Origin: a virus | IMG/VR virus record: IMGVR_UViG_3300022542_001227 | Coordinates: 1 to 40,383 of that record | Reading direction: 5' to 3' (one strand) | DNA: 40,383 nt | In this document: in pieces, positions 5,872 through 38,453 of the stretch | Layout of the letters: every line of letters begins with the position of its first letter | Numbering within the stretch: position 1 is the stretch's first letter | Made by a program: the position numbers and the translations under genes | Notes under the pieces: generated by a model | The model's database searches: none | Told to the model about the DNA's origin: nothing | The model's input: only the letters and a program-made list of their open reading frames with translations

Positions 5872-5933
5872 TATTTTTCATTATTTTACTTGTTTTAATA
5901 GGTATTTGATGTTGTTTACCCATCCCTAATTCA

Positions 5934-6837: not shown

Positions 6838-6895
6838 AAATGATTCTTCAACTTTTATATTCTTGTGGTTTCTAATTAGGCCACAAATTGTTTGA

Positions 6896-7237: not shown

Positions 7238-7267
7238 GTAGCAATATGCTACAAAGGGGTATTTAAA
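7238..7267 (-). promoter_or_regulatory. Motif promoter 2: TTTAAATA at -30, palindrome GTAGCA-TAT-TGCTAC abutting the ATG
   Basis: Read directly. The palindrome spans 7238-7252. Confidence 0.6.
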
Positions 7268-7286
7268 AATATAGTATTCCAGGTGA

Positions 7287-7448
7287 TTAGCCTGAATTAT
7301 TCTTTAGATATTCTTTAGCATCAAATTCACTAGTAAATGGGCCCACCATTTTATTTATGGCAAAGTATCCACGTTGTGGATTTTTACCAGTGCCATCATC
7401 TACATTTTCAAGATATAGTGCTTCATTCTCTATTGTCATTACTGGCAT
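7287..7448 (-). CDS. Small protein (53 aa)
   Basis: Hand translation MPVMTIENEALYLENVDDGTGKNPQRGYFAINK... Below the track cutoff. Confidence 0.4.
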   Translation of the reverse strand: MPVMTIENEALYLENVDDGTGKNPQRGYFAINKMVGPFTSEFDAKEYLKNNSG

Positions 7449-7485
7449 AAACTAAGATAAAATAATAGAAATAAAAAAGTTGTGA

Positions 7486-7758
7486 TTAGTTACCAACTAA
7501 TCTATTTGTATGTCTAGATATTTCACTTGATTTTCTACGAATTGATTCAATTACAGTTACTAAGTTTTCCATACTTGGCATTGTACCGCTTTTAGAATCT
7601 GTTTCTGGATTACCAGCAGCAACAGGCTTATCACCATTTACAAGAATATCCAATGATTGTTTTGGACTTAATAATACTTCATCTATTTCTTGTAATTGTT
7701 GATAAATTCCTTTTAGATTTTTAGGAATTTCCATTACTGCTTCTTTTTGATCACTCAT
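7486..7758 (-). CDS. Hypothetical protein (90 aa)
   Basis: Track ORF with ATG start. Confidence 0.5.
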   Translation of the reverse strand: MSDQKEAVMEIPKNLKGIYQQLQEIDEVLLSPKQSLDILVNGDKPVAAGNPETDSKSGTMPSMENLVTVIESIRRKSSEISRHTNRLVGN

Positions 7759-7761
7759 TAG

Positions 7762-7968
7762 TCATGCTACATCTTCTAACTTTATAATCTCTTTGGTTTT
7801 TCTTTTCTCAACACGATCAACAATCTCACCGTCATACACTACATTATGTTCTTTACACCACAATAGTAAACACTTGTCACTACACCAACGAAATGAATCA
7901 AGTGGAAATATTGCAAATGTAACTTGTGCACCTAAAATATCACATCTAATGCAGTGTTTTAATTTCAT
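7762..7968 (-). CDS. Cys-rich small protein (68 aa)
   Basis: Track ORF 7762..8103 trimmed to MKLKHCIRCD...FRWCSDKC...WCKEH. The longer version overlaps 7946..8152. Confidence 0.45.
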   Translation of the reverse strand: MKLKHCIRCDILGAQVTFAIFPLDSFRWCSDKCLLLWCKEHNVVYDGEIVDRVEKRKTKEIIKLEDVA

Positions 7969-8152
7969 GTGTACCCCTATCATATGATACTTCTTTACAA
8001 GTACAACCAATTGATTCAATTGTTCCATCAGTTCTTGGTATAATTCTAGTAACACCAACACCACAAAGATTTCCATTATGTCCAGGATGGCCACATGTTT
8101 CACATTGTTGGCAGTATTTATTATTGAATTTCCTAGTGCAAGATCTACACAA
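7946..8152 (-). CDS. CCHC zinc-knuckle protein (68 aa)
   Basis: CETCGHPGHNGNLC fits C-x2-C-x4-H-x4-C exactly. There is an additional CRSC...CQQC pair. TTG start. Confidence 0.5.
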   Translation of the reverse strand: MCRSCTRKFNNKYCQQCETCGHPGHNGNLCGVGVTRIIPRTDGTIESIGCTCKEVSYDRGTHEIKTLH

Positions 8153-8297
8153 TTTTAATCAAGTCTAAATTATTTTCAAATATCTTTAGCCATGCTAATG
8201 TAGCAATATATGGTTCTTCACTATGTAAGATACACCATCTGGCCCTATCTAGACAAAATTCTAAAAAATCTAAATTAGTTATCATCAGTGAAATCAT
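8145..8297 (-). CDS. Possible small protein (50 aa)
   Basis: Hand translation MISLMITNLDFLEFCLDRARWCILHSEEPYIATLAWLKIF... Confidence 0.35.
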   Translation of the reverse strand: MISLMITNLDFLEFCLDRARWCILHSEEPYIATLAWLKIFENNLDLIKIV

Positions 8298-8363
8298 CTA
8301 TAGATGTACCTTTATGGTTTTCGTTGTGTGTCTTTTTGTTAGATAGTTTAGATGTTCGAAGTG

Positions 8364-8585
8364 TCAATATCTACATACACCATAGTGAATTACATTATTT
8401 TCATAATTTGTGTGCTCATTAATTTCATGGGCATAAATGCATGGGTTCCAATAACTAAGATAGATAGTTTTGGAATAATAGTATGTGCACCCATCTACTG
8501 GTACACCATTACAACTAATTGGATTTTCAGCAATGATTAATGTCCAACCACAAACAGATGCAATACAAATTGCTACTTCAATCAA
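8364..8585 (-). CDS. Cys-rich small protein (73 aa)
   Basis: Track ORF with a TTG start in a TTGA overlap with 8582..8704. Confidence 0.4.
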   Translation of the reverse strand: MIEVAICIASVCGWTLIIAENPISCNGVPVDGCTYYYSKTIYLSYWNPCIYAHEINEHTNYENNVIHYGVCRY

Positions 8586-8704
8586 GACATGCCACTACCA
8601 AAACAAACAGGGCAATCACCAACCACTACATCACCTTCCATTTCTTGGCCAGTACCACTACATGTAATACAATCAAAGCCATCTGATTCTTCTTCAAAAC
8701 TCAT
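8582..8704 (-). CDS. DnaJ-type CxxCxGxG zinc-finger micro-protein (40 aa)
   Basis: Hand translation MSFEEESDGFDCITCSGTGQEMEGDVVVGDCPVCFGSGMS. ATGA overlap with 8701..8892. Confidence 0.45.
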   Translation of the reverse strand: MSFEEESDGFDCITCSGTGQEMEGDVVVGDCPVCFGSGMS

Positions 8705-8892
8705 TGTAGATCATCTATTCTTGCTTTCTTGTAACTATAATCTAATGTTTCAGTTAATGTTTTTTCAGTATCAGGTGTTAATAATAATCTCATATCATAA
8801 CCACATTTTTCACAAAAAATAATCAATTCATCTTGTAAATAATGTACATAACTACATCTTTTACAAGTAGTAATGTCGCCTTCATATCTCAT
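8701..8892 (-). CDS. Zinc-ribbon protein (63 aa)
   Basis: CKRC ... CEKC pairs. 4-nt overlap with the upstream gene. Confidence 0.5.
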   Translation of the reverse strand: MRYEGDITTCKRCSYVHYLQDELIIFCEKCGYDMRLLLTPDTEKTLTETLDYSYKKARIDDLQ

Positions 8893-9188
8893 TTCAATTC
8901 ATCCTTCTTTACAATTGCTGCAATAATATGTTTACAAGAAAAAGTGTGGCCATGTTCTGAAAAATAGTTTGATGCTAGGCATTTTGAATCTTTCATGTAG
9001 TCCATACCAAATTTGAAGGAAGGACAACTACATGCATTAAAGATACCATCAGCAGTAATGACACCACAATATTTTATTTTAGTTCCATCAACTACTTTGA
9101 AGTGATTCTTTGTATGAAATATTACATCAACTAGTTTTGATTTCTTGATTCGTCTATTCTTTTCAAAGATTTGTTTACTGGTGTTCAA
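8889..9188 (-). CDS. SWIM-type zinc-finger protein (99 aa)
   Basis: CSCPSFKF ... CKHIIAAI fits the CxC-xn-CxH SWIM signature. Confidence 0.6.
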   Translation of the reverse strand: MNTSKQIFEKNRRIKKSKLVDVIFHTKNHFKVVDGTKIKYCGVITADGIFNACSCPSFKFGMDYMKDSKCLASNYFSEHGHTFSCKHIIAAIVKKDELK

Positions 9189-9394
9189 TTTTTAATCAAC
9201 AACTCACTAATTTTTTTAGCATATGTACTTAGATATTTCATACCTGCAGCAACATCACCTGCAAATTCAGCAGTTAATGTACAAGTTTTAGCATCAAATC
9301 TTAAATTTTTAAATCCAAAAACTTTTCCTTCTTTGTTGACATGTAATTCAACATCTTCTGAGTGATCAACTTTTGAATCATATGTATCAAGCAT
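9185..9394 (-). CDS. Hypothetical protein (69 aa)
   Basis: Track ORF 9185..9433 trimmed to the ATG at 9394, giving an 8-nt overlap with 9387..9509. Confidence 0.5.
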   Translation of the reverse strand: MLDTYDSKVDHSEDVELHVNKEGKVFGFKNLRFDAKTCTLTAEFAGDVAAGMKYLSTYAKKISELLIKN

Positions 9395-9509
9395 GATAAT
9401 GATACCTACACTTACCAGAAATAGTTGAATCAATTGGTGCAGCTAGTATTTCAACTACTTCCATCAATTTATCAAATGTTTCATCTGATACTTTAATGTC
9501 ATATTCCAT
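9387..9509 (-). CDS. Small protein (40 aa), first gene of a motif-driven unit
   Basis: Hand translation MEYDIKVSDETFDKLMEVVEILAAPIDSTISGKCRYHYHA. The ATG abuts the GTAGCAATATGCTAC palindrome. Confidence 0.45.
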   Translation of the reverse strand: MEYDIKVSDETFDKLMEVVEILAAPIDSTISGKCRYHYHA

Positions 9510-9538
9510 GTAGCATATTGCTACATATCACTATAAAA
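9510..9538 (-). promoter_or_regulatory. Motif promoter 3: TTTTATAG at -29, palindrome GTAGCA-ATA-TGCTAC abutting the ATG
   Basis: Read directly. The palindrome spans 9510-9524. Confidence 0.6.
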
Positions 9539-9747: not shown

Positions 9748-11538
9748 TTAGAGTGTCTTAAACCAACCTGAACTATCATTTTTGAGTAAGTGAGCAACAA
9801 ACATGTACACAAGTGCATGCATTGCATCATCTGGTTCTGTTTCATCATGTTCATACACCATAGTTTCCCTGCCTTTTCGTAGTACCATAACCCCTTCAAC
9901 TGCTTCAAAGTTGTCAATGAGCCAATCATTATCTGTATCAGTAAATCCAGGCAATCCAGTATTATATGGAATAATTAATCTAGGAAATGTATTGTTCCCT
10001 TGCACATGATACCTTGTCATAAGATCACGTAGTTGCTCAATTGCATATGTTCTATCTATCATGTATCTATTATCATATCGCAGTTGATCAATTTCTTCTG
10101 GTTTTGGTAATGGAAATTCTGGCCTGCCCATTGGATAATAATTAATTCTAACAACACGTGGCCCAAATGTATCTTGTAGTTTTTGTACTTGTCTAGTTCC
10201 ACCACCAGCATCTATTCCAACCATATCAACTTCATATGCATTGATTAATGAAATTAGCATGTCTGCTTGTTTCTCAACATCTTTTTCTTTGATTCGTCTT
10301 ACGTACAATGTTTTGAAAATTGGTGCAGTTGGGTGTAGTCTTTGTGCAATCCAGATTATTGTATATGCTTTGTTGCCACCACCAAGATCTATTCCAGCAA
10401 GTATGGGGCCTTTTGTTTTATCAATTAAGTCTGCAGGTGTTAGTGAAGATGATTTATCAAATAGTTTTTCAAGGTCTTCACGTAGAAATGGTTTTGCTGC
10501 ACCTTTGATGAACTTGGCCTTAATGTGACGCATGTATTCATCATATGTTAATTCGTTCTTCAACCACTGTAAAGACCACTTGATAGAAATTTTGTATTTC
10601 TGCATTGCTTCTGTTTCTGTAACTGGAACATTTGGAAATATTTCTTGGCCCATGTGATAACCGTTAATTGGTGAATCATGATTTGCTTGTGATACCCATT
10701 TACCTGCAAGTAGTGGTTTCATGTAATTACCCCACACTAATCTGCTTCTTCCAATTGTAAATTCATCTTCAAGTAGTTCTTTACAATTGTATCCTAGGAA
10801 TTTTAAACCATCACGCCACTTTTCATTGTCATATATCCATTCCATTTGATTTGATTCAAGCCATCCTTTGTGATGTTTAGTGCCAATGTATCCACCGATA
10901 CCTGCAAGAAATGAATTACCTTGTGTCCAGGAAGATGCAAGTATTAGCCTACCATATGCTACCATGTTCAAGTATTGCCATTCATCTAGAAAATTATCAT
11001 CAGTAGATTTTCCTTCAGCGTGTGTAAAGTCATGATTATGTGTAATGAAATCTTGCTTACTACCATTTAGAAAATCCATATGATTCATTGAACCAAGTGT
11101 TGTACCGTTTACAAATTTAGCAAGGAAGTTATCTTTGCCACCAAATACTGATTGTCGATATTTAGCACCAACAAATGTTCGTCTTGATTCATCTTCATAT
11201 GTACAGTACAATTGCCAAGAATTATTTTTAGTAATTGCTTTGTATGCAAGTTTGTTTCCAATTAATGATGTTTTGCCACGTTGTCTTGCAATTACATATC
11301 GCTGTTCATCAGATTCATCTTCATATGGTTGTTTCCACATTGGTAAAAATTCTAAGATATTACGTTTGCCTTCAAAGTATGGCCTATACTTTATTGTAAA
11401 TTCGTAACAGTTAGCTGCATCAATTTGTGGTAAGGTGTCTACTGCTGCTTCCTTTGCTTGATTCAAAGAAGCCATTGAGATCTTCGATTCGTTGTGCTTC
11501 TCTACTGTCTTCCATCTTTTTGTTCTGGTCACTGTCAT
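9748..11538 (-). CDS. terL: Terminase large subunit
   Basis: Walker A-like VIARQRGKTS and Walker B LDEWQ. RNaseH-like nuclease Asp motifs GIDLGGG, GIDAGGG and DDAMHA. 596 aa. An alternative start at M22 is possible. Confidence 0.9.
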   Translation of the reverse strand: MTVTRTKRWKTVEKHNESKISMASLNQAKEAAVDTLPQIDAANCYEFTIKYRPYFEGKRNILEFLPMWKQPYEDESDEQRYVIARQRGKTSLIGNKLAYKAITKNNSWQLYCTYEDESRRTFVGAKYRQSVFGGKDNFLAKFVNGTTLGSMNHMDFLNGSKQDFITHNHDFTHAEGKSTDDNFLDEWQYLNMVAYGRLILASSWTQGNSFLAGIGGYIGTKHHKGWLESNQMEWIYDNEKWRDGLKFLGYNCKELLEDEFTIGRSRLVWGNYMKPLLAGKWVSQANHDSPINGYHMGQEIFPNVPVTETEAMQKYKISIKWSLQWLKNELTYDEYMRHIKAKFIKGAAKPFLREDLEKLFDKSSSLTPADLIDKTKGPILAGIDLGGGNKAYTIIWIAQRLHPTAPIFKTLYVRRIKEKDVEKQADMLISLINAYEVDMVGIDAGGGTRQVQKLQDTFGPRVVRINYYPMGRPEFPLPKPEEIDQLRYDNRYMIDRTYAIEQLRDLMTRYHVQGNNTFPRLIIPYNTGLPGFTDTDNDWLIDNFEAVEGVMVLRKGRETMVYEHDETEPDDAMHALVYMFVAHLLKNDSSGWFKTL

Positions 11539-15704: not shown

Positions 15705-15734
15705 GTAGCAAATTGCTACATGGTTCTTAATATA
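15705..15734 (-). promoter_or_regulatory. Motif promoter 5: TATATTAA at -30, 9-bp-arm palindrome CATGTAGCA-ATT-TGCTACATG
   Basis: Read directly. Core palindrome at 15705-15719. Drives the RHH gene. Confidence 0.6.
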
Positions 15735-19020: not shown

Positions 19021-20256
19021 TTATTTGACTTGATTGCCATATCCTCTAAAACCTTTTGTTGGCTCTCTTTGATACATTTCAATTGCATCTGGTCTATTGG
19101 GATACATTTCTAGTAACATTTTAGCAAATATTTTTGGCTTGGCAGAATGTTCACCAACTGGTGCATCAATAACAGATTCAAATCTTTTTACTGGTACAAC
19201 TTTCTTACCTTTGAAACAAAGTAACAATGTTTCATGGTATCCAAGTGTGTAAGAACCAGTATTTGGTTTATCTTTATGCCATATGATTTCTGCACCAACT
19301 TCAAGACCATGTGCTTCTAAGATATGTTCCATTGTAGATCTAGTTTTTGAAATTGGTTTCATAATTTTTCTATGCTGTGTTACGTGATTTACTACACCTG
19401 CTTCAACTATTGTTTCACGTTCACCAGTAATTCTTTTAATTCTATCATACTTCATACTGTTTGGTATCCACATTGCAACAACTGCTTCATCTGCAATTGG
19501 TAATTTAATATCACAAATTTCATCAAGTGTCATTAATGGATAATGTTTCAATGCCCCACCACGTACAGTTGCATCTTTGAATTTGTAGGGCCAATCAACA
19601 TATAGCAATGTAGTTTTGCCTTCTGGTGCTGGTAACTTTGGTAAATTTCGTTCTTTGATTGTAACTAGTGTATGTACTGTATTGATTGATTTTTTCTTTT
19701 TATCCAAATCATCTAAAAACTTTTCAAATTCAGGGTTTGCATCAACACTATCAATGATTTTTTTAATCTTTGAAATTTGTGCTGGTGAATCACCAGTAAT
19801 TTGTGATACTATTTTGATTGTTTTACCAGGTAACTGACCTGGATTGTCTTTTGTTGGTCTACCAAGTATTTGCTTCTTTTCAATCAAATCAATAATGGTT
19901 CCAATTTCCCTTGTAGTGTAACCTTTACGTGCACCAGTTCCAATAAAACCTGCAGCAACTAGATCATCAACATCTAACATTACAAAAGGAATTACAGTTG
20001 CATCAAGTGATTCAAATGCTTGTATTCTTCGTTCACCTTTTACAAGTTTCATTTTTGGTGTAATTAGTATTGGCTGTTCTATTCCTACTTCTAGCATTGT
20101 ATTAGCTAGTGCTTCAATATCACCATAGTTGGTTCTGATTCTGCCAGATCTATCAATGTCTGCAATTGAAATTAATTCTGCATTAGTTGGTACTTTGATT
20201 TGAATTGCTTTTGTTTCAAAATAACCACCAACAAATTTTTGTGGTTTGTGAATCAT
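19021..20256 (-). CDS. ParB-like N-terminal domain fused to an MT-A70-type N6-adenine DNA methyltransferase (411 aa)
   Basis: ParB/Srx box GIEQPILITPKMKLVKGERRIQAF. MT-A70-like LLYVDWPY (a DPPW variant), YPLMTLDEI, MWIPN, IIWHKDK and HSAKPK. Confidence 0.8.
   Translation of the reverse strand: MIHKPQKFVGGYFETKAIQIKVPTNAELISIADIDRSGRIRTNYGDIEALANTMLEVGIEQPILITPKMKLVKGERRIQAFESLDATVIPFVMLDVDDLVAAGFIGTGARKGYTTREIGTIIDLIEKKQILGRPTKDNPGQLPGKTIKIVSQITGDSPAQISKIKKIIDSVDANPEFEKFLDDLDKKKKSINTVHTLVTIKERNLPKLPAPEGKTTLLYVDWPYKFKDATVRGGALKHYPLMTLDEICDIKLPIADEAVVAMWIPNSMKYDRIKRITGERETIVEAGVVNHVTQHRKIMKPISKTRSTMEHILEAHGLEVGAEIIWHKDKPNTGSYTLGYHETLLLCFKGKKVVPVKRFESVIDAPVGEHSAKPKIFAKMLLEMYPNRPDAIEMYQREPTKGFRGYGNQVK
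19825..19843. repeat. 19-bp hairpin repeat, copy 2 (inside the ParB-MT-A70 gene, at the domain junction)
   Basis: accaggtaactgacctgga encodes NPGQLPG. Confidence 0.85.
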
Positions 20257-20429
20257 TGCTCTACCTCACTATACTTTGGTATTTCACTAAACTTTATTAC
20301 TTTGGAATAATCTATATTGTTTTTCTTGGGATTGCCTTGTTCATCTACATATCCATTCTTTGTCCATATCCAAGTTTTAGTGACTCCTTTGAGTTTTTCT
20401 TCATGTTTACCTTTGATGTGTGTAATCAT
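20253..20429 (-). CDS. Hypothetical protein (58 aa)
   Basis: Track ORF trimmed from a GTG start to the ATG at 20429. 4-nt overlap with the methyltransferase gene. Confidence 0.45.
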   Translation of the reverse strand: MITHIKGKHEEKLKGVTKTWIWTKNGYVDEQGNPKKNNIDYSKVIKFSEIPKYSEVEQ

Positions 20430-20538
20430 TAACACTCACTCCAACCACATTCACAGTCATAACCATTTTCATTATACTTGCATTTTTTACCACATTTAGA
20501 ACAGTTTAGAGTACCCTCAATAGTTTCAAAATCTTCAA

Positions 20539-20727
20539 TCAATCTTCTCTCTCCCATAGTTCAGCATGTTTACCCATAGGGATTCTAGTTCTAGGTGGTA
20601 ATTTTCCATCTCTTAATTGTCTTAATTTGGATTGTGTAATATCAAAGAATTGTGACATACCTTTCATATCCATTCCTTGTTCTAATGAGTCTACCAATTC
20701 AGTTTTAGTAAGATAGTTTTGAGTCAA
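20539..20727 (-). CDS. Possible helix-turn-helix protein (62 aa)
   Basis: MSQFFDITQSKLRQLRDGK is an HTH-like segment. TTG start in a TTGA overlap. Confidence 0.4.
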   Translation of the reverse strand: MTQNYLTKTELVDSLEQGMDMKGMSQFFDITQSKLRQLRDGKLPPRTRIPMGKHAELWERED

Positions 20728-20918
20728 TGCATAAAAAACTCCTGTACGATAGTTGCAGTTTCAATTAATCCACAACCTGACTCACATTTTGGACAAAACA
20801 GTTGTACTAATTCAGGTAATTCTTTGTAACGTCTATCAAACTCTAAAATCTCTAACTGTGTAGAACATTCAGCACATGTTCTTTCAGTTGTTAATGTTTC
20901 TGATTTATCTAAACTCAA
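20724..20918 (-). CDS. Zinc-ribbon protein (about 64 aa)
   Basis: CAEC ... CPKC. The track ORF 20724..21008 has a hydrophobic N-terminus that looks like an out-of-frame read of 20938..21075. A TTG at 20918 lies 9 nt after AGGAG. Confidence 0.4.
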   Translation of the reverse strand: MSLDKSETLTTERTCAECSTQLEILEFDRRYKELPELVQLFCPKCESGCGLIETATIVQEFFMH

Positions 20919-20937
20919 GAACAATCTCTCCTGAGTG

Positions 20938-21075
20938 TCATTTAATTCCCTCAATGTGTTTTTTGATACATTCAAAACAAAATAAATCACTACAAAAACC
21001 ACATTCAAAATGGTGATTTCTTGCCTCCATGTGCCAACATTGGTCGGTTGAATTACACTTTAATTCTTTAATCAA
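20938..21075 (-). CDS. Cys/His-rich micro-protein (45 aa)
   Basis: Hand translation (M)IKELKCNSTDQCWHMEARNHHFECGFCSDLFCFECIKKHIEGIK. TTG start in a TTGA overlap. Confidence 0.4.
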   Translation of the reverse strand: MIKELKCNSTDQCWHMEARNHHFECGFCSDLFCFECIKKHIEGIK

Positions 21076-21188
21076 CTACTTTCTACTCCAAGTGTTGTTT
21101 GGCAGACGTTACCACAGTCTTGACAAATCTCCTTATTGGAATCTAAATCAGGTAACGTATTGTTAGTTTTACAGTTATAACATCTCAT
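21072..21188 (-). CDS. Zinc-ribbon micro-protein (38 aa)
   Basis: Hand translation MRCYNCKTNNTLPDLDSNKEICQDCGNVCQTTLGVESS. ATGA overlap. Confidence 0.4.
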   Translation of the reverse strand: MRCYNCKTNNTLPDLDSNKEICQDCGNVCQTTLGVESS

Positions 21189-21295
21189 TTTAATTTCTTA
21201 CCCTCACTTCTTAGACCACATTTTGAACATTGTGATTTTGGTTTAGAACTGATAAAATAATGACTGCATTTACAAGAAAATAAAAAATAAGGCAT
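21185..21295 (-). CDS. Zinc-ribbon micro-protein (36 aa)
   Basis: Hand translation MPYFLFSCKCSHYFISSKPKSQCSKCGLRSEGKKLK. TAATG overlap. Confidence 0.4.
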   Translation of the reverse strand: MPYFLFSCKCSHYFISSKPKSQCSKCGLRSEGKKLK

Positions 21296-21411
21296 TAGAA
21301 ATAATATCTGCCTCTATATGTTACAAATCCATTTTCCAACCCCTCTCTTAATGGGATTGTTCTAAAGACTTTTTGGATTGTTTGTATGTTGTGAGTTTTT
21401 ACTTGTTTCAT
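21295..21411 (-). CDS. Small protein (38 aa), first gene behind the GTTATAATATAAC operator pair
   Basis: Hand translation MKQVKTHNIQTIQKVFRTIPLREGLENGFVTYRGRYYF. Confidence 0.4.
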   Translation of the reverse strand: MKQVKTHNIQTIQKVFRTIPLREGLENGFVTYRGRYYF

Positions 21412-21458
21412 GTTATATTATAACAACTCCTTAGTTATATACATTGTTATATTATAAC
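21412..21458 (-). promoter_or_regulatory. Promoter with two GTTATAATATAAC near-palindromes bracketing a TATATAAC box
   Basis: 13-mers at 21412-21424 (abutting the ATG at 21411) and 21446-21458. TATA-like octamer at 21434-21441, starting 30 nt upstream of the ATG. Confidence 0.5.
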
Positions 21459-21461
21459 ACT

Positions 21462-21710
21462 TCAACTACGTTCAACCTCAAGTGTATAGTGATTTAATTT
21501 TCCTAGTTTCTTATCCTTTTCATAATCCATGAATAATTTATGGTCTCTGTCTGTCATTGAACAGTAATGAGGCTTACAATATTTTGTTTTTAATCCCCAA
21601 TCTAATGCAAATTGATACTGTGATTCGTTTTGATTCATGGCGTAATTTGCTTTCCATACTTTACAGATGAATAAATTTTCTAACCAATTTGGTTTTTCTT
21701 TAACTTCCAT
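21462..21710 (-). CDS. Hypothetical protein (82 aa)
   Basis: Track ORF with ATG start and a TAATG overlap with the upstream gene. Confidence 0.5.
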   Translation of the reverse strand: MEVKEKPNWLENLFICKVWKANYAMNQNESQYQFALDWGLKTKYCKPHYCSMTDRDHKLFMDYEKDKKLGKLNHYTLEVERS

Positions 21711-21928
21711 TATGCTTTACCCTCATCTTCTTTTGTTGTTTGACCTGTTTGTTCCAACCAAAAATCAAATAATTCTCCTAGTGGAAATAACTCATTGTGT
21801 ATCATTTCTTCTAATTTTGGCATGACTTGTAAACAGAAATTGGTTGAATATCCCCTAGATGCAAGATGTTGACATTGATCTTTCAATGCTAGATACTGCA
21901 TAACTGTGTTAAGTTCCTCAAATTTCAT
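21710..21928 (-). CDS. Hypothetical protein (72 aa)
   Basis: Track ORF 21710..21994 trimmed to the ATG at 21928, giving an ATGA overlap with 21925..22299. Confidence 0.45.
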   Translation of the reverse strand: MKFEELNTVMQYLALKDQCQHLASRGYSTNFCLQVMPKLEEMIHNELFPLGELFDFWLEQTGQTTKEDEGKA

Positions 21929-22299
21929 ATCGCTTTCCCTTCTTCTTTGTCGGTATCTTGGGGTTCTTCGTGTAGCCTCTCTAATGTATCCCACATACCA
22001 TTTGGTTTAGTAACTCTGAGAATTGTTTTAGCATTTAGATTCTTTTCAGGTAGAGTTTTGTAATCCCAACCCTCAGAACCGTCATATTCTGAACGTTCTA
22101 ACCACCAAGTACCACCAACAACTAACAAATCACTAGCAATCTCTTGAGCACCATATCCTGAATCATAGTCTATATCTGCAATCTTTTCAAATTCTTTCCA
22201 AGAGATAACATATTCACCATTACCAACCCATTTAATTTCAACAGTGCTTTTGTCATGACTCTTTAGAATCGATAGTGTTTCTTCAAGTAAGTTTGTCAT
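21925..22299 (-). CDS. Hypothetical protein (124 aa)
   Basis: Track ORF with a GGTWWLERSEYDGSEGWDY segment. No family assigned. Confidence 0.55.
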   Translation of the reverse strand: MTNLLEETLSILKSHDKSTVEIKWVGNGEYVISWKEFEKIADIDYDSGYGAQEIASDLLVVGGTWWLERSEYDGSEGWDYKTLPEKNLNAKTILRVTKPNGMWDTLERLHEEPQDTDKEEGKAI

Positions 22300-22430
22300 T
22301 TCTTCACTTTCCCAATGTTTGAAAGTGTATTTTCACGCATGATTGATTCATAAATAAATTGGTACTCTTTTTTGAAATCTTCTGAAAGATTAGGTGTGAT
22401 GCAATCATGTAAGAATTGATATTGTTTCAT
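22296..22430 (-). CDS. Small protein (44 aa)
   Basis: Hand translation MKQYQFLHDCITPNLSEDFKKEYQFIYESIMRENTLSNIGKVKK. ATGA overlaps at both ends. Confidence 0.4.
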   Translation of the reverse strand: MKQYQFLHDCITPNLSEDFKKEYQFIYESIMRENTLSNIGKVKK

Positions 22431-22531
22431 TGAGAACTCTTACCTCGAAGTGTAACTTGACTCGGACACCCTTGATAACATGGAGGACATATCCAATGGT
22501 GATTTCGTTTATGTAATGCACAATAGAACAT
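22427..22531 (-). CDS. Cys/His micro-protein (34 aa)
   Basis: Hand translation MFYCALHKRNHHWICPPCYQGCPSQVTLRGKSSQ. GGGAG lies 11 nt upstream of the ATG. Confidence 0.4.
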   Translation of the reverse strand: MFYCALHKRNHHWICPPCYQGCPSQVTLRGKSSQ

Positions 22532-22623
22532 TATCGATTTAACTCCCAATGATAAACACAATACTCTGAATTATCTTCTTGTACTGTAGCCTCTTCAAAA
22601 CATTCAGGCCAATCACACGTCAT
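22531..22623 (-). CDS. Cys/His micro-protein (30 aa)
   Basis: Hand translation MTCDWPECFEEATVQEDNSEYCVYHWELNR. The ATG abuts the stop of 22624..22857. Confidence 0.35.
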   Translation of the reverse strand: MTCDWPECFEEATVQEDNSEYCVYHWELNR

Positions 22624-22857
22624 CTAACATTTTCCCCCTTTTGTTCGCTGAGGAATGAATTTATCGTCAGGGTGGCATTTATGACAGTCTAACGAATCAT
22701 AAAATCCATCAAAACAATAACCACAAGGTTCATCACATAAGATAAACTCAGGATTCCAGCCATATTCTTGATTATGGAATATTACATGTTTTGGTAATCT
22801 AAGTAAAAATCCTATTTGTCTAACTCGTCTATGAATTAAACCATGAATGTTCCTCAT
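22624..22857 (-). CDS. Cys/His-rich protein (77 aa)
   Basis: CDEPCGYCFDGFYDSLDCHKCH. Track ORF abutting the Dam gene stop. Confidence 0.5.
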   Translation of the reverse strand: MRNIHGLIHRRVRQIGFLLRLPKHVIFHNQEYGWNPEFILCDEPCGYCFDGFYDSLDCHKCHPDDKFIPQRTKGGKC

Positions 22858-23259
22858 CTACCTGTTTCTCCTTTCGGTTACATGAGGCGTAAAGATACAA
22901 AGCATTGAACCATACATAGGATGTTTACCACTATCTAATTGCAAGCGACCTCTAAAACCCAAGATTTTAGCATTAGGTACAATCAAATCAAAAAACCAGG
23001 CTGCATCAGGTACGTGCGGCAACAACATTACCGTTATGTTTCCTTTCTTTTGTTCTTTTATTGCCCTTTTAATCCAGGGTATCTTATCTGAATAAGGGGG
23101 ATTCACATAATTCATTCTAGACCATTCTATTTTTAGACCGTCCCAATCTGGATGTTCTCTTAACGGACAGGGGTCAAAGAATCCACCAAACAAATCAAGT
23201 AACCACCTGGGGCTAGGACTTGAATCTTTTGAACCCCTTGTAACCGATTGATTAATCAA
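22858..23259 (-). CDS. Phage Dam-type N6-adenine DNA methyltransferase (133 aa)
   Basis: WLLDLFGGFFDPCP followed by YVNPPYS (NPPY catalytic motif) and IPWIKRA. Size and layout match the small phage Dam family. TTG start after GGGAG. Confidence 0.8.
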   Translation of the reverse strand: MINQSVTRGSKDSSPSPRWLLDLFGGFFDPCPLREHPDWDGLKIEWSRMNYVNPPYSDKIPWIKRAIKEQKKGNITVMLLPHVPDAAWFFDLIVPNAKILGFRGRLQLDSGKHPMYGSMLCIFTPHVTERRNR

Positions 23260-23390
23260 TTATCTAACAACTCCCTTTTCTTTCTATTTGTAACAATTTG
23301 AGGATAGCATTTAGGACAACGCCATAAACAATCAGTGCAATTACAAGAATGGTTACAGTCTGGCTCGTTCCCCTTTGGCTGTTCTGTCAT
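23256..23390 (-). CDS. Cys-rich micro-protein (44 aa)
   Basis: Hand translation MTEQPKGNEPDCNHSCNCTDCLWRCPKCYPQIVTNRKKRELLDN. ATGA overlap. Confidence 0.4.
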   Translation of the reverse strand: MTEQPKGNEPDCNHSCNCTDCLWRCPKCYPQIVTNRKKRELLDN

Positions 23391-23560
23391 TTGACTCGTC
23401 TGACTCCTTCATCTGCTGAATGTTTTTCACATAATCCAATTCTAACATTATTACCATTCCATGATTTCATGATAAATCCTGTAAAAACAGGTTTACCACA
23501 CATTCCAGTTTTTGATAAATATCTTAAACAAGTCTCCTTGCTCTTTGTAGAATCGGGCAT
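23387..23560 (-). CDS. Small Cys-containing protein (57 aa)
   Basis: Hand translation MPDSTKSKETCLRYLSKTGMCGKPVFTGFIMKSWNGNNVRIGLCEKH... AGGAG lies 11 nt upstream. Confidence 0.45.
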   Translation of the reverse strand: MPDSTKSKETCLRYLSKTGMCGKPVFTGFIMKSWNGNNVRIGLCEKHSADEGVRRVK

Positions 23561-23594
23561 CAGGCTTTATCTCCTGAACCGAATGAATGTTTTG

Positions 23595-23711
23595 TCAAAT
23601 TAACTCATCCTCCAAATCGTATGGAGTAAAACCAATATCTCTTTTCCAGATAATTAGATTGGCATACCTGATAAATGCTATAATTGGATTCTCAATTTGA
23701 CGTTTATTCAA
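23595..23711 (-). CDS. Possible small protein (38 aa)
   Basis: Hand translation (M)NKRQIENPIIAFIRYANLIIWKRDIGFTPYDLEDELI. Requires a TTG start. Confidence 0.3.
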   Translation of the reverse strand: MNKRQIENPIIAFIRYANLIIWKRDIGFTPYDLEDELI

Positions 23712-23811
23712 TTTCGCTTACCTCATTTTTCCTATCTTCCATAATCTGACATTCATGACAAAATTTGTATGTGTGAGTATTACAATCTGGACAATTATTC
23801 AACTCGGTCAT
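23704..23811 (-). CDS. Zinc-ribbon micro-protein (35 aa)
   Basis: Hand translation MTELNNCPDCNTHTYKFCHECQIMEDRKNEVSEIE. AAGGAG lies 9 nt upstream. ATGA overlap. Confidence 0.4.
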   Translation of the reverse strand: MTELNNCPDCNTHTYKFCHECQIMEDRKNEVSEIE

Positions 23812-23897
23812 TGACCATCACTCCTTTCCTCACCACATTGAGGACAGAAAACCCATGTTTCGTCTAATTCAAAACTACAAGAAATACACTCTTTCAT
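23808..23897 (-). CDS. Zinc-ribbon micro-protein (29 aa)
   Basis: Hand translation MKECISCSFELDETWVFCPQCGEERSDGQ. TAATG overlap with 23897..24349. Confidence 0.4.
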   Translation of the reverse strand: MKECISCSFELDETWVFCPQCGEERSDGQ

Positions 23898-24349
23898 TAT
23901 TGTTTATACAACTCCACCATACTGTACAAAAATACTTGTGCAAGTATACTTCTTTCTTTTGCATTTTTATCAACAATAATTGGGCCTTCTTTTGTTGGCA
24001 TTCCAGTTTCATCTTTTGGTACTTGTGATTCAGCATACTTTTTTGCTGCTGGCCATAGATCATATAACATTCTTTCAGAATCTTTTAGTTTTTGTTCTGG
24101 TGTTCTAGTTGGTTTTGAAGGGATTGCACCACGTGCTTCTTTAACTTTGAAAATTGGTTTCATATCAAAGTACTTGTGGATTGCAGAAATTTCATCATAC
24201 ACTGCATTTCGTTCTTTAGTAGATTTTGATTTATCAAAAAACAAATCACATAGTTCTTTTCTTCTTGCATGGATTACATCTAGTGCACCTGCATCATGTT
24301 GATCACGTGGCTTTTTCATTAATTCTTGTACTGTTTTATCTGGTTCCAA
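23897..24349 (-). CDS. Hypothetical protein (150 aa)
   Basis: Track ORF. TTG start 5 nt after GGTGA. An alternative ATG lies at 24319. Confidence 0.5.
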   Translation of the reverse strand: MEPDKTVQELMKKPRDQHDAGALDVIHARRKELCDLFFDKSKSTKERNAVYDEISAIHKYFDMKPIFKVKEARGAIPSKPTRTPEQKLKDSERMLYDLWPAAKKYAESQVPKDETGMPTKEGPIIVDKNAKERSILAQVFLYSMVELYKQ

Positions 24350-24358: not shown

Positions 24359-24559
24359 CTATTGAGATTTTAATTTCCTATATTCATTTAATTTTGATTC
24401 GTTGATTCTAATGTTAATTGAAATGTTTGCACCAATTGCTGGATCAAAACCATCTGTAATTACAGGGTTCATTATTGCTTTTGCTTCTGTTGCTTCTTGG
24501 ATTATATTTTGTACTTCCATCATTTTTCTAACTACATAATCATCTATTGATTCTACCAA
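24359..24559 (-). CDS. Hypothetical protein (66 aa)
   Basis: Track ORF. The TTG start abuts the stop of 24560..24718. Confidence 0.45.
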   Translation of the reverse strand: MVESIDDYVVRKMMEVQNIIQEATEAKAIMNPVITDGFDPAIGANISINIRINESKLNEYRKLKSQ

Positions 24560-24718
24560 TTATTTCAGCCTCTTTTTGTCTTTAGAAATTGCAGAATTTA
24601 TTGCATTAATCATGTATGAAGGTAATGAACCTAGGGTATATTTTTCTAGAAAAGTATTCCATTTCTTAACATCTGTTTTTAATGCTCTAATATTTGTCCA
24701 CTTGCTTGTTTTAACCAT
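24560..24718 (-). CDS. Small basic protein (52 aa), first gene of a motif-driven unit
   Basis: Hand translation MVKTSKWTNIRALKTDVKKWNTFLEKYTLGSLPSYMINAINSAISKDKKRLK. The ATG abuts the GTAGCAAAATGCTAC palindrome. Confidence 0.45.
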   Translation of the reverse strand: MVKTSKWTNIRALKTDVKKWNTFLEKYTLGSLPSYMINAINSAISKDKKRLK

Positions 24719-24748
24719 GTAGCATTTTGCTACAAGACATTATATAAA
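24719..24748 (-). promoter_or_regulatory. Motif promoter 7: TTTATATA at -30, palindrome GTAGCA-AAA-TGCTAC abutting the ATG
   Basis: Palindrome at 24719-24733. Confidence 0.6.
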
Positions 24749-24752
24749 GATT

Positions 24753-25565
24753 TTATTTTCTATTGTACAAAGATCTTAAAACCCTTCGTTGTCGCCATCT
24801 AGATAAATGGCGGTTCAATATGCCTGAACTTCCAAATCTATCTTGCATTCTTGGAATGCTGCTTATTGTATCCCAATAGAAATTTTGTTTCTGTAGTATT
24901 CCATTAACATATCCAGGCTTTGCATATGGCCCCATTAGTGATTCATTGGGATTTGCTAAATCATGTCTTCCAATTAGTGAATGAAATATTTCATGCATTG
25001 CAATTTGTAATGTTGGCTGACTGGCTCTCATTATTAAATTACCTAGTCTATCAGTTTGTCCTGGATGGAAATTTATAGGATCAACAAAGTGTGCTTCAAC
25101 TGGCCAACCTAATGAAGTAAAATACCAATTGCTTTCTGGTGAATCATTGAATTCTATTACACCATTAAATTTTGAATTTGGATAATATAGATATGCATGT
25201 GCAAGTACTCCAAGTTTGTTTCCAAATGTTTCAATATCTTCACGCCATTCAATTGTAAGATCAGTTTTGATTCCAGTGAGTTTTTGAAAATCTAATTTTA
25301 TTTTTGTTAATTTTTGAAAAGAATTGAATGCTTCTTGAAATGTAGTTAGCTGTGCTTTACCAGTCATATCGGGTGTATGATCTATAAATTTCCAATCAAA
25401 ATATTTTTTATCAGGTGGCCAATTGAATTTCCATATATCTTGGCCAATATCTATTTCATCAACAATCTCACCGTCTAGTGTGTTTAGTACATAGTTGATT
25501 GTTTTACCTGGGTTATCTTCTTGAACTAGTGAACATCTGATTTGATCAGTACTGAAATTAACCAT
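24753..25565 (-). CDS. Matrixin-like (metzincin) zinc metalloprotease, no signal peptide (270 aa)
   Basis: HEIFHSLIGRH zinc site at 24963-24995 followed by an SLMGPY Met-turn. Upstream TDLTIEWRED and GVLAHAYLYYPNSKFNGVIEFNDSPESNWYF parallel the matrixin blocks aDImI.F and GtLAHAf.P...G..HFDd.E.W. Confidence 0.7.
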   Translation of the reverse strand: MVNFSTDQIRCSLVQEDNPGKTINYVLNTLDGEIVDEIDIGQDIWKFNWPPDKKYFDWKFIDHTPDMTGKAQLTTFQEAFNSFQKLTKIKLDFQKLTGIKTDLTIEWREDIETFGNKLGVLAHAYLYYPNSKFNGVIEFNDSPESNWYFTSLGWPVEAHFVDPINFHPGQTDRLGNLIMRASQPTLQIAMHEIFHSLIGRHDLANPNESLMGPYAKPGYVNGILQKQNFYWDTISSIPRMQDRFGSSGILNRHLSRWRQRRVLRSLYNRK

Positions 25566-36020: not shown

Positions 36021-38453
36021 CTAGATAGTGTTTCTACTAGTTAGTCTACATGTTGAATCTTTGATTTTACAAAATGCACCAGTTTTCATAGATGCAGTTG
36101 CAAATACAGATTGCTGTCTGGATACCCTTTCAGCATCAACTTGTAGTTCCCTACCAGTAACAAATCCAAATGAAACAGTTGGAACGAACATTACAGATCT
36201 ACTTACCGTAGTAGTAGTTGGGTGTGTTGCAAGACTGTTTGTTGTGATTAATTGTACCCCAGATAATTTTTCAATTATTCCTTCCGTTATGATTTCAGGA
36301 AGGCTTCTTTGAACGTATCTTGAGATGTTTGTATCATTAATCAAGTCGTTTCTTGCTTGTGTAGTTGTGTACATTACTACATTTTCTACACTTAACCCAG
36401 TGTCTTCAATCTTTTTCTTACCTGCAAGTAATGCTGCAAAAGTCATTGCACCAGTTGCACCCGAATCACCGTTTGCTGTGGTGATTTCTGCAGCACTGTT
36501 ACCATTTATCCAGTGTCTATTACCCACAATGTCAACTGTATGTTTTGCACCGCCACCAGCAGGTCTTACTGCATCTGTTGCAGAATTATATGCTGTGTCG
36601 TTGTTGTATGCAGTGTTAAGAACTTGGAAGTTCTTTCTTTCTTCTGCACGCATTGCAAAACCAATGTTGACTTTTTGGATAATGTCTATTGGTAATTCTT
36701 CAAGATCAGTGAATCCGATTCTGACAAGTCCACCTTGTGCAGTTGTTTTTCCACCAGATGCATTGATTGTTACATCACTGGCTTGTAGTGCAAATCCACC
36801 ACCGCCTGCATCCATATCGGCTTCATCTGTATCAAAGAATTCTGGTATGTCAACATCATAGAATAGATGTTCTTTCTTGCCAGGGGCTAAGATTGCAGTT
36901 TCACAGAATTGCTGAATTGGTGTAACTATAATTCCGTTAGGAAATACTAGTACCAATTCACTTTGAGTTCGTTGGAAGTTATTAGGATCTGCACCACCAG
37001 CCATTCCAGCGTTTGTTGCTTCAAATGACTTTAGGTAGTCTTTACCCATAACACTCTCATAGGATTTCATTACGTGGTTTCCAAATTCATTCACATCTCG
37101 GAACTTACTAGTTACGAAGTTGTCAACGTATTGATGTGAAACCTTCCAAGTTTTATTCCAAGGTACATTTTCATCACCTCTAATCAACTTGTCAATCCAT
37201 TGTTTTGGGGCCATGTTAGCAGCTTCTATTGATTTGGTAAGTATTGAATTAACATTACTACCAAGTTTTGCTTTTTGAATAGCAGCAGTCTTTTGGGCTT
37301 CAAAAGATTTTTCTGCCATTGCTAAAAGTTGCTCGTTTAGCTTGTCCTTTACTTCCAAGGATTTCGTGTATTCCAGTTGAGCAGCAGTCCTTTGTCTAAC
37401 ATCAGCGTTTGGCCCATTATATTCAAGGTCTTTTGCTTCAATAGATTTGGTGCTTTCATTTAATTTGTCTAAAGCTTCTTTTGCTTTGACAGATGTAGCT
37501 CTTGCTTCTTTAGCAGCCTTGATAATCATTTCACCTTTTTTGATTGCTTCATCAGCTTTCTTTTTGGTTTCATCATTTTCATCTTCGGTTTCTTTTGATT
37601 TTTCCTTTTCAGGATCATCATTAGAATTATCTGCCTCAGTGCTTTCTTCTGGAAGTGGTTCTGTTTTCACAGGTATTTGTGCACCAGTGTCAGCATCAAT
37701 AATTGCCTTAGTTGTAGTAGGATTATTGGCGTTTGGCATGGTTCCACCTGCTTGTTCTGCTTCTGTAGAAGTCGTTGTTTCGTTATTTTTGGTTTCGTCA
37801 ACCATATTGTTTTGATTTTCTAGTGCACGTATATAACTACTATCTTTTTCAACTGCTTCTGTACTTAATGTTGCAATTGAAAACCCTGGTTTGAATACAA
37901 TACTATATTCTTCATAGATTGAATTTTGGATAATTTTGTAACATGCTACTTCATCACAAAATTGTGGTAAATCTGCAGGGTGTAATACTCCTTGTGAAAC
38001 ATTCATTTTTTTCAGAATTTCAGGGTTTTTATAAAATGGATCAGTGATCAGTCCTTCATGTAATAATTGTAATGTTTCAGGGTTCCACCAAGTTTTGCCA
38101 GAACCAACAACAATTTCTTCACCTGCTTCTAATCTGGCCCTGTAACTATCAGGTAGTAAATCTGGCCCAATTCCATCTGTTCCAATCATAGTTCCATGAT
38201 TTAACCAAATTGGTAATGCTATACCATCACCATGCATCAATTCACCAATAGAATACAGTTTTCCATTTGCGGATATTCCAGGATATGCAAGCATTCCATG
38301 AATTTTTGTGCCAGCATTGGTTTGTTCAAATACAATAACTTCACCATTTAATGCTTCAATTGCAGTCATTTTTGAAATATCACCACCTGCTGCTTCTAAT
38401 GATTTCATAAATTCTGCAGTTTTAATACTGCAAGGCTTGAAGCCTTCAATCAT
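36021..38453 (-). CDS. Prohead protease - scaffold (delta-like) - HK97-fold major capsid protein fusion (810 aa)
   Basis: N-terminal ~200 aa has HK97-type prohead protease blocks (ALPIWLNHG, MNVSQGVL). The middle ~180 aa is an acidic/K-rich coiled coil. The C-terminal ~380 aa is capsid-like and follows the portal gene. Confidence 0.7.
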   Translation of the reverse strand: MIEGFKPCSIKTAEFMKSLEAAGGDISKMTAIEALNGEVIVFEQTNAGTKIHGMLAYPGISANGKLYSIGELMHGDGIALPIWLNHGTMIGTDGIGPDLLPDSYRARLEAGEEIVVGSGKTWWNPETLQLLHEGLITDPFYKNPEILKKMNVSQGVLHPADLPQFCDEVACYKIIQNSIYEEYSIVFKPGFSIATLSTEAVEKDSSYIRALENQNNMVDETKNNETTTSTEAEQAGGTMPNANNPTTTKAIIDADTGAQIPVKTEPLPEESTEADNSNDDPEKEKSKETEDENDETKKKADEAIKKGEMIIKAAKEARATSVKAKEALDKLNESTKSIEAKDLEYNGPNADVRQRTAAQLEYTKSLEVKDKLNEQLLAMAEKSFEAQKTAAIQKAKLGSNVNSILTKSIEAANMAPKQWIDKLIRGDENVPWNKTWKVSHQYVDNFVTSKFRDVNEFGNHVMKSYESVMGKDYLKSFEATNAGMAGGADPNNFQRTQSELVLVFPNGIIVTPIQQFCETAILAPGKKEHLFYDVDIPEFFDTDEADMDAGGGGFALQASDVTINASGGKTTAQGGLVRIGFTDLEELPIDIIQKVNIGFAMRAEERKNFQVLNTAYNNDTAYNSATDAVRPAGGGAKHTVDIVGNRHWINGNSAAEITTANGDSGATGAMTFAALLAGKKKIEDTGLSVENVVMYTTTQARNDLINDTNISRYVQRSLPEIITEGIIEKLSGVQLITTNSLATHPTTTTVSRSVMFVPTVSFGFVTGRELQVDAERVSRQQSVFATASMKTGAFCKIKDSTCRLTSRNTI

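Follow-up and report, generated by a model that had tools for sequence, protein, structure and literature searches.

A Fast-Changing Chain of Overlapping Micro-Genes with Shared Coding Tails and Bridge ORFs in a Tailed Virus Probably Infecting Ammonia-Oxidizing Archaea

Positions 20253 to 24349 of IMG/VR record IMGVR_UViG_3300022542_001227 (here the window, analyzed at its full length of 40,383 nt) were found to carry, on the minus strand, a genuine and fast-changing chain of tiny overlapping genes (Table 1). Together, 24 ORFs tile 99% of this stretch (4,047 of 4,097 nt are coding); 14 of them are 25 to 59 aa long, and two more comprise 8 and 12 aa. Stop and start codons overlapped or abutted (spacings of -8 to 0) at 23 of the 24 junctions between position 24349 and the start of the ParB-methyltransferase (ParB-MTase) gene, with 14 junctions at -4, six at -1, two at 0, and one at -8; the remaining spacing of +50 is a break in the chain at 21462 to 21411. 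The original prediction had described about 14 additional micro-ORFs, nearly all joined to their neighbors by 1- to 4-nt overlaps, and both points were borne out, the latter at the 20 junctions spaced at -4 or -1. Every junction that it listed was recovered on the minus strand, namely ATGA at 23808, 23387, 22427, 22296, 21925, and 21185, TAATG at 23897, 22531, 21710, 21295, and 20429, and TTGA at 23256, 21072, and 20724. Overlaps absent from that list were TTGA at 23595, 20915, and 20539, TGATG at 23560, ATGA at 20938 and 20253, and the -8 overlap (23711/23704), together with abutting TAG-ATG at 22858 and 22624. As predicted, TTG starts were frequent at overlaps (8 of 24 starts, six of them within TTGA overlaps) and paired CxxC motifs were common (two CxxC in seven ORFs; at least four cysteines in 8 of the 14 micro-ORFs).

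Table 1. Features of the array and its borders, in the direction of the coding strand
Feature	Coordinates	Strand	Remarks
Unit head: TATA-like box, palindrome, leaderless ATG, conserved 52-aa gene	24560..24752	-	No SD
Conserved 66-aa gene, TTG abutting preceding stop	24359..24559	-	dN/dS 0.05-0.33
Conserved 150-aa helical protein, left slot border	23897..24349	-	57-75% identity, four relatives
29-aa zinc ribbon (predicted)	23808..23897	-	PF13240 above cut-off, E 3.8e-7; public call
35-aa ORF, two CxxC	23704..23811	-	Public call
38-aa ORF, TTG start, -8 overlap	23595..23711	-	No homolog found
12-codon bridge ORF, TTGA in, TGATG out	23560..23598	-	SD -11.4 kcal/mol
57-aa gene	23387..23560	-	L012 homolog 90% identical, other neighbors, dN/dS 0.12
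44-aa Cys-rich ORF, two CxxC	23256..23390	-	Weak codon score; no homolog found
Dam-type adenine methyltransferase, 133 aa, TTG start	22858..23259	-	PF05869 above cut-off; L003, L045 orthologs
77-aa gene, two CxxC	22624..22857	-	Cluster of four; dN/dS 0.09 vs L013
30-aa Cys/His ORF	22531..22623	-	Public call; SD -9.1
34-aa Cys/His ORF	22427..22531	-	Weak L044 homolog, 44%, E 1e-3
44-aa ORF	22296..22430	-	Tail common to unrelated L003 and L044 genes
124-aa phage protein	21925..22299	-	phrog_3972 E 1e-32; tail common to L013, L003 genes
72-aa ORF, ATG 21928	21710..21928	-	EDEGK-type tail
82-aa ORF, end of chain 1	21462..21710	-	VEVDGS-type tail
Promoter-like cassette	21411..21461	-	Palindromes, TATA-like box; between chains 1 and 2
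38-aa ORF, head of chain 2	21295..21411	-	Public call
36-aa Cys/His ORF	21185..21295	-	Weak codon score
38-aa zinc-ribbon-like ORF	21072..21188	-	PF08271 E 2e-4, below cut-off
45-aa ORF, two CxxC, TTG start	20938..21075	-	TTGA junction at 21072
8-codon bridge ORF, ATGA in, TTGA out	20915..20941	-	22 nt identical to L003 Dam 3' tail
64-aa zinc-ribbon protein, TTG 20918	20724..20918	-	phrog_1257 E 3e-4; public call; atlas features 0.95
62-aa gene, TTG start	20539..20727	-	L044 homolog, 57% identical
37-aa zinc-ribbon-like gene, TTG 20542	20429..20542	-	Cluster of three; public call starts 20557
58-aa gene, last in slot	20253..20429	-	L014 homolog 86% identical, dN/dS 0.39
ParB-N + MT-A70 methyltransferase gene, conserved, right slot border	19021..20256	-	Comparison with relatives

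Among ORFs of at least 25 aa, 15 of 28 ended on the start of another such ORF. Dinucleotide shuffles gave a chance level of 1.1 of 18.7, and among off-frame ORFs of the structural region 5 of 48 did so. Such ORFs were chained in runs of up to 10, whereas no run exceeded 4 in 300 shuffles. A public protein collection contained 7 of the 14 micro-ORFs with identical boundaries; it lists an eighth with its start farther upstream. For two 94-aa candidates, starting at 21008 and (with GTG) at 21994, the coupled starts 20918 and 21928 were adopted instead, both of which match public calls. Approximately half of the micro-ORFs had no homolog, and the codon scores of the Cys-rich ones fell within the range of wrong frames. 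Of the zinc-ribbon profiles, PF13240 was matched above its cut-off by the 29-aa ORF; the other ORFs scored below cut-off or gave no match. A rough census of the genome placed 34 of 93 genes below 60 aa, a share closer to one third than to the predicted quarter. The 60-aa cutoff that had been taken as a standard pipeline loss proved to be the limit of the ORF track itself, and public pipelines differ.

The virus genome is complete (40.2 kb) and of the tailed type, with terminase and HK97-type capsid genes. Judged by its sequence affinities, the host is probably a member of the Nitrosopumilaceae, marine ammonia-oxidizing archaea of the class Nitrososphaeria. A counterpart of the capsid operon (32 to 46% identity) is present in a Nitrosopumilaceae genome bin, and a counterpart of the peptidase gene sits on a Nitrosopumilus contig alongside a tRNA. 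For the fused protease/major capsid protein, the sole match among 50,697 phage genomes was the Nitrososphaera provirus Nvie-Pro1 (FR725450; E 5e-19), which at 23% identity is a distant relative only. Scanning for sigma-70 promoters yielded fewer sites than in shuffles, as expected for an archaeal virus.

The array occupies a hypervariable slot between two conserved genes, those of the 150-aa protein and the ParB-MTase, thus showing the variable small genes and conserved flanks of a phage hyperplastic region. This slot is empty in L004 and in one Logan contig, where the border genes are directly joined by a -4 overlap; it holds a single micro-gene in L002 and in L006 and a different array in L003. 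Although its gene content turns over almost completely among close relatives, three small genes have homologs in other neighborhoods, with dN/dS values from 0.09 (against L013, a possible chimera that joins a truncated H+-pyrophosphatase gene) to 0.39, and are under purifying selection (pooled pN 0.056, pS 0.31). In-frame conservation in relatives, originally proposed as a check, was lacking for the whole array and present for single genes. As a test of gene reality, conservation in place would have misled, since the array is missing in close relatives while its genes are kept elsewhere. Neither the 150-aa protein nor tail patterns, when scanned against IMG/VR and JGI contigs, returned anything beyond chance matches, and the 150-aa protein had no family match, no fold match for its model (pLDDT 70), and no atlas match. 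At the unit head, the palindrome GTAGCA-N3-TGCTAC (24719-24733) abuts the leaderless ATG of the 52-aa gene (24718-24560), which shows dN/dS of 0.23 to 0.38 against four relatives; at the other border, the stop codon of the 58-aa gene (20253) shares nucleotides with the ParB-MTase start ATG.

Shine-Dalgarno (SD)-like sites were scored at a threshold of ≤ -4.5 kcal/mol, with the anti-SD taken from the 16S 3' end of three Nitrosopumilaceae genomes. They were detected at 23 of the 24 array starts, compared with 20% of 202 unused start codons. Four of 14 structural internal genes and 2 of 14 unit heads also had one, so the claim that SDs are lacking there was mostly, not wholly, right. Across six variable arrays, three of them on contigs shorter than 6 kb and the relatives' genes called with a custom caller that rewards overlaps and SDs, SD use at overlaps was 89%, compared with 52% in the conserved early clusters of the same viruses. 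The host control, 34 junctions of one Nitrosopumilaceae genome, gave 50%. None of the conclusions depends on the unpublished genome G261. Because SD use at overlaps lies above both levels, the array departs from ordinary operon architecture. SDs at internal genes combined with leaderless heads are an archaeal pattern (Huber et al. 2019, PMC6728339). The proposed internal genes of an archaeal operon thus look real and overlap in the manner of coupled genes, whereas the ordinary architecture implied by that proposal did not hold.

Contrary to the supposition of one continuous chain, a promoter-like cassette divides the stretch into two. Its two perfect 15-bp palindromes (21445-21459 and 21411-21425) flank a TATA-like box located 24 to 30 nt ahead of the ATG at 21411, and this arrangement suggests a second transcription start. 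A TTG ORF of 15 codons (21465-21418) also spans the cassette. No such cassette was found in the relatives' loci.

The final 35 nt or so of the genes, containing the SD and the overlap, were common to unrelated genes and differed between orthologs. The SD itself lies within the upstream gene's final ~20 nt. Among pairs of non-homologous junctions, 13 of 3,799 scored at least 18, whereas two nulls that kept each SD and overlap gave expectations of 0.5 (maximum, 2) and 1.7 (maximum, 3) pairs; conserved clusters yielded 1 of 5,450 pairs and host junctions 0 of 561. Identity was limited to about -35 to +5 around the start codon and dropped sharply on both sides. Tails of 22 to 23 identical nt, third codon positions included, link different upstream and downstream genes. 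One 54-aa zinc-finger body was seen in three copies, of which two end in an EDEGK-type tail and the other in a VEVDGS-type tail; both types are present in the window on other genes. C-terminal tails of Dam and of the 77-aa gene likewise differed between orthologs or cluster members, and the L045 Dam ortholog had no tail at all. A strong tail partner was found for only 7 of the 23 window junctions. Ahead of the SD, an ACA motif seemed frequent on visual inspection, but it was not enriched (38%, versus 33% in conserved clusters) and was rejected as a common core.

Gaps of 19 to 46 nt were closed by bridge ORFs of 8 to 17 codons. These occurred in 12 of 18 gaps versus 4.3 expected (P about 2e-7) and in 0 of 19 in conserved clusters. 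All 13 bridges were located in variable arrays and their sequences were mostly different; of the two in the window (8 and 12 codons), the longer has a sequence match in the 3' tail of an unrelated L003 gene of 55 aa. The starts downstream of bridges equaled independent public gene calls in 9 of 12 cases. Gaps of about 20 nt nearly abolish coupling in Haloferax and Escherichia coli, and in E. coli the upstream gene's last 15 nt are enough for it (PMC10666635).

The explanation that we favor, and consider reasonably probable, is an accessory operon translated by termination-reinitiation, in which selection preserves an unbroken chain while gene bodies turn over. The stretch would form the accessory slot in the early operon of a tailed virus of archaea; its mRNA would begin at the unit head with no leader, and ribosomes would move from gene to gene by termination-reinitiation. 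Because of this passage, a gain or loss that broke the chain would silence all downstream genes, including the conserved ParB-MTase, and selection would therefore keep rearrangements in which every joint retains an intact SD-plus-overlap tail. Such tails would outlast gene bodies and then be reused, and a deleted gene would shrink to its head and tail, that is, to a bridge ORF whose role would be to supply ribosomes and not a useful peptide. The products of 30 to 80 aa, many with predicted zinc binding, most likely act early, in host interaction or regulation. Strong SDs could let ribosomes initiate de novo, and the selection argument would then be weaker.

Adding to this explanation, not opposed to it, is the reading of tails as active recombination joints, with 20- to 35-nt shared ends providing homology for body swaps between coinfecting viruses, in the manner of PeSL cassettes but within coding sequence. 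We regard this as a plausible possibility that falls short of probable. It accords with the identical tails that unite different genes on both sides, the sharp fall in similarity beyond them, and the switching of tails on identical bodies, but the tails form many small families with no single consensus, PF00589 is absent from the window, and no near-identical genome pair places a crossover inside a tail. Tentatively, tails might be both portable reinitiation modules and recombination joints, so that bodies could be added, exchanged, or lost with neither an integrase nor polarity, each loss leaving an 8- to 17-codon bridge; we consider this combination rather unlikely.

It is improbable that the array is an ordinary compact phage early region, in which genome compaction, A-rich composition, and the amino acids encoded by the SD generated overlaps, SDs, and similar ends independently and bridges by accident. 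Overlaps of -4 and -1 are the commonest prokaryotic spacing (PMC10666635), small CxxC genes are described as common in archaeal viruses in passages of PMC7230728, and the conserved clusters of the same viruses overlap too. This reading is nevertheless already disfavored by the SD- and overlap-keeping nulls, which never approached the observed number of shared tails, and by the near or total lack of shared pairs, and the absence of bridges, in conserved clusters and host junctions. We give little credence to the notion that tails act as peptides (C-terminal degradation or docking tags) and that bridges encode active micro-peptides: tails always lie in one frame and produce recurrent C-terminal motifs, but the frame is set by the stop codon and its constancy is uninformative, the motifs are centered on SD letters, nucleotide-level identity extends a few bases into the next gene, and one Dam ortholog dispenses with a tail. 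An integron-like or att-site array made by a site-specific tyrosine recombinase is highly improbable and largely rejected: the L003 array does end with such a gene (PF00589, E 5e-14; interrupted by an in-frame stop following codon 45), and the final 24 nt sequenced of it are identical to window positions 20268-20291, but the complete window genome has no PF00589 match, the ORFs overlap directly with no attC-type or other inverted-repeat site and no common core at their junctions, and the shared 18- to 24-nt sequence was dismissed as an att site, its 18-mer being no commoner than a control in 401 host-family genomes.

Coupled micro-genes alone are known biology; the shared tails and bridge ORFs are added features. 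Known coupled overlapping gene pairs (Huber 2019, PMC6728339; 2023, PMC10666635) likewise have -4/-1 overlaps with the SD inside the upstream gene, leaderless heads, and SDs mainly at internal genes. Those pairs encode subunits of one complex, whereas the chains here join up to 15 unrelated accessory genes, and array SD use (89 to 96%) exceeds that of the host control. Coupling was measured in Haloferax, while in this virus of a probable Nitrososphaeria host it is deduced from sequence. MIRUs (reviewed in PMC12548453) similarly contain a short ORF coupled at -4 that keeps the next gene's expression intact; they are one dispersed chromosomal repeat family, whereas the bridges are heterogeneous, head-plus-tail-like, and confined to one variable viral slot. 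The PeSL cassettes of T4-type phage hyperplastic regions (Arbiol et al. 2010, PMC2839356) also accompany variable small nonessential genes, and their short shared sequences at gene borders are proposed drivers of modular shuffling. PeSLs, however, are intergenic promoter-terminator units, whereas the tails are parts of coding sequences, contain only translation signals, and fall into many small families. No PeSL-type promoter/terminator stem-loops were found between the array genes, 23 of whose 24 junctions leave no intergenic space; the coding strand has one terminator-like site. Passages on HF1-group halovirus CxxC proteins (PMC7230728) and Haloferax zinc-finger micro-proteins (PMC6562870) likewise describe many CxxC proteins of <100 aa, clustered outside the structural module and mostly without assigned function. 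These belong to a different host class, are likened by description and not homology, and tail sharing and bridges are absent from those passages. Neither pattern was found in the limited set of open-access literature searched.

The findings address an open question, namely how genes are gained and lost at the borders of phage and archaeal-virus mosaics without silencing the genes downstream. Shared coding tails and bridge ORFs offer a concrete, testable answer in a system whose internal genes probably rely on reinitiation. With them, the case for termination-reinitiation reaches viruses of ammonia-oxidizing archaea, and a class of 8- to 17-codon ORFs comes into view that is reported by no annotation pipeline. 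The array thereby suggests a way for these viruses to exchange genes while translation stays intact.

The virus genome is a single contig with direct terminal repeats and a completeness rating of 100%, and nearly all of its genes lie on the minus strand. Among 50,697 phage records, the only match to its capsid protein was the Nitrososphaera provirus Nvie-Pro1. Because, in addition, a genome of the Nitrosopumilaceae set carries a syntenic capsid operon and a homologue of the peptidase is found on a Nitrosopumilus MAG contig, the sequences suggest that the host is probably a marine ammonia-oxidizing archaeon. The peptidase homologue (L011:10001-13491) lies near a tRNA-Gly gene and small genes, possibly as part of a decayed integrated element. 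A genome search also detected a protease/capsid homologue in a Nitrosopumilaceae genome (L068/L073:5675-7993), with one TAG inside the matched stretch.

Annotated genes of the virus and their positions
Feature	Position
Terminase	9748-11538
ParB + MT-A70 methyltransferase	19021-20256
Dam	22858-23259
M10 peptidase	24753-25565
Fused protease/capsid	36021-38453

All 14 overlap junctions listed in the original prediction for the array of tiny genes were located in place, and further ones were found. From 24349 to the start of the ParB-methyltransferase gene, 24 ORFs, 14 of them of 25 to 59 aa, are connected by 24 junctions with spacings of -4 nt (n = 14), -1 nt (n = 6), and -8 nt (n = 1), two abutting junctions, and one 50-nt break, and 4047 of 4097 nt are coding. 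In 15 of 28 cases, an ORF stopped where another one of at least 25 aa begins, compared with about 1 of 19 in shuffles. Called ORFs had a codon score of 0.02 versus -0.39 for wrong frames (P = 1e-6); scores of the Cys-rich ORFs were weak one by one. Using the anti-SD sequence from 16S genes of three host-family members, SD-like sites were detected at 23 of 24 array starts and at 20% of unused start codons. The proposed absence of such sites from leaderless unit heads and structural genes mostly held, with exceptions at 2 of 14 heads and 4 of 14 structural genes. SD use at overlaps was 89% in variable arrays, compared with 52% in conserved clusters and 50% of 34 overlaps in the host control, which fits modules obliged to work in any context. 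Our control was another cluster of small genes with overlaps, located at 5429-9509 behind the terminase gene; it is more conserved, its SDs are weaker, and it lacks bridges.

This architecture suggests that the ORFs are translated and coupled. For three of the small genes, close homologues occur on other contigs, where each is coupled to neighbors other than those in the window. Their dN/dS values were 0.12 (57-aa gene versus L012; P = 3e-5), 0.09 (77-aa gene versus L013; P = 1e-7), and 0.39 (58-aa gene versus L014; P = 0.095), pointing to selection. Another array holds a 57% identical homologue of the 62-aa gene, two relatives cluster with the 37-aa gene, and the 29-aa gene scores above the Pfam zinc-ribbon cutoff. 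Public pipelines had already called 7 of the 14 micro-ORFs with exactly the same ends; support for the remaining ones as genes comes from their place in the chain, their SDs, and the pattern of Cys residues.

The array is hypervariable, since close relatives (terminase 82 to 87% identical) keep both flanks while the content of the slot differs. The 150-aa gene directly overlaps the ParB-methyltransferase start in L004 and in one Logan contig, and L002 and L006 hold one unrelated micro-gene. The L003 array, which exceeds 4 kb, is a different one with only Dam in common, and in a fifth relative a further series of small genes lies behind the peptidase. Conservation in place, proposed as a test of the micro-ORFs, was therefore the wrong one. 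The array is a real feature, and its reading as a coupled, archaeal operon-like series was partly supported.

L003 contains a tyrosine recombinase gene (PF00589; 9391-10014) in which codon 45 is followed by an in-frame TGA, and its last 24 sequenced nucleotides are those of window positions 20268-20291. The same N-terminal piece is followed by an HNH gene in L014, where an 18-nt part occurs in two copies. In L013 (1391-2377), a stop codon marks the joint between the array and the N-terminal half of an oppositely oriented H+-pyrophosphatase gene; either the array was inserted into a cellular gene or the contig is chimeric.

Where arrays share short stretches of DNA, these lie at gene ends. Windows of -36 to +6 were compared for 88 junctions of six variable arrays, and pairs whose upstream or downstream genes are homologous were excluded. 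Thirteen of 3799 pairs scored at least 18, against 0.5 expected (maximum, 2) from an SD-anchored column shuffle and 1.7 (maximum, 3) from a pooled codon shuffle preserving each SD and overlap; the corresponding counts were 1 of 5450 for the conserved clusters of the same viruses and 0 of 561 for host junctions. The signal was lost in windows shifted by 42 to 84 nt. Mean identity of the top pairs was 0.73 over the last 20 nt and about 0.3 outside -40 to +9, and 7 of 23 window junctions had a partner at a score of at least 16. Dam orthologues of the window and L003 end differently and that of L045 lacks the tail, at least three distinct ends are seen for the 77-aa gene, and a 54-aa zinc-finger body occurs with one or the other of two tail types, both present in the window on other genes. 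Swappable tails are well supported by sequence, although the sample comprises six arrays. Such tails may have some role in recombination; as joints they call for caution, as young copies resemble each other without selection. Two paralogues in one array (L044:744-1079 and L044:1925-2188) are 82% identical and differ in heads and tails.

In the window, bridge ORFs of 12 (23598-23560) and 8 codons (20941-20915) close what look like two gaps; both have an SD ahead of them and overlap their neighbors on either side. The former has its match in the tail of a 55-aa gene of L003, and the latter shares 22 identical nucleotides with the tail of L003 Dam. Over all variable arrays, 13 bridges of 8 to 17 codons were found. 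Of the gaps of 10 to 70 nt, 12 of 18 were bridged, compared with 4.3 expected when the null model holds both flanks constant (P of about 2e-7). In conserved clusters, 0 of 19 gaps were bridged. The gene caller used rewards overlaps, yet 9 of 12 starts downstream of bridges coincide with independent public calls. Two bridges of different viruses have 23 identical nucleotides in common. A bridge in L003 (5599-5646) shares 12 nt with the start of the 29-aa zinc ribbon (window 23886-23897) at the same slot position, as expected for a collapsed gene. Bridge ORFs are likewise well supported by sequence, with the same limit of six arrays.

At the break (21462-21411), two perfect 15-bp palindromes (21411-21425 and 21445-21459) flank a TATA-like box positioned as at the leaderless head 24718; this operator-like pair was not found in relatives. 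The break is probably an internal promoter and operator that arrived with the downstream part of the array. A 15-codon ORF traverses it, so read-through coupling may occur. Another palindrome, GTAGCA-N3-TGCTAC, adjoins four leaderless ATGs (24719-24733, 15705-15719, 9510-9524, and 7238-7252; 0.07 expected) and is kept in loci of five relatives.

In Haloferax, overlapping gene pairs are strictly coupled, with an SD that acts without de novo initiation, and reinitiation is almost lost once the gap reaches about 20 nt; for E. coli, the final 15 nt of the upstream gene are enough (PMC6728339, PMC10666635). Should these rules apply, a break anywhere in the slot would silence downstream genes, and therefore only rearrangements preserving a tail at each joint would survive. 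Deletions fusing a head to a tail would leave bridges. The array would then work like a TeRe operon. It also behaves like a hyperplastic region of phages, and its bridges would act like MIRU ORFs (PMC12548453). A PeSL array, an integron, and membership in the MIRU family were ruled out, as promoter-terminator repeats, an integrase and attC sites, and one common repeat sequence, respectively, were not found. Micro-genes are ordinary for archaeal viruses. In HF1 haloviruses, small CxxC genes have been described (PMC7230728). The swappable tails and the bridge ORFs are open to direct test.
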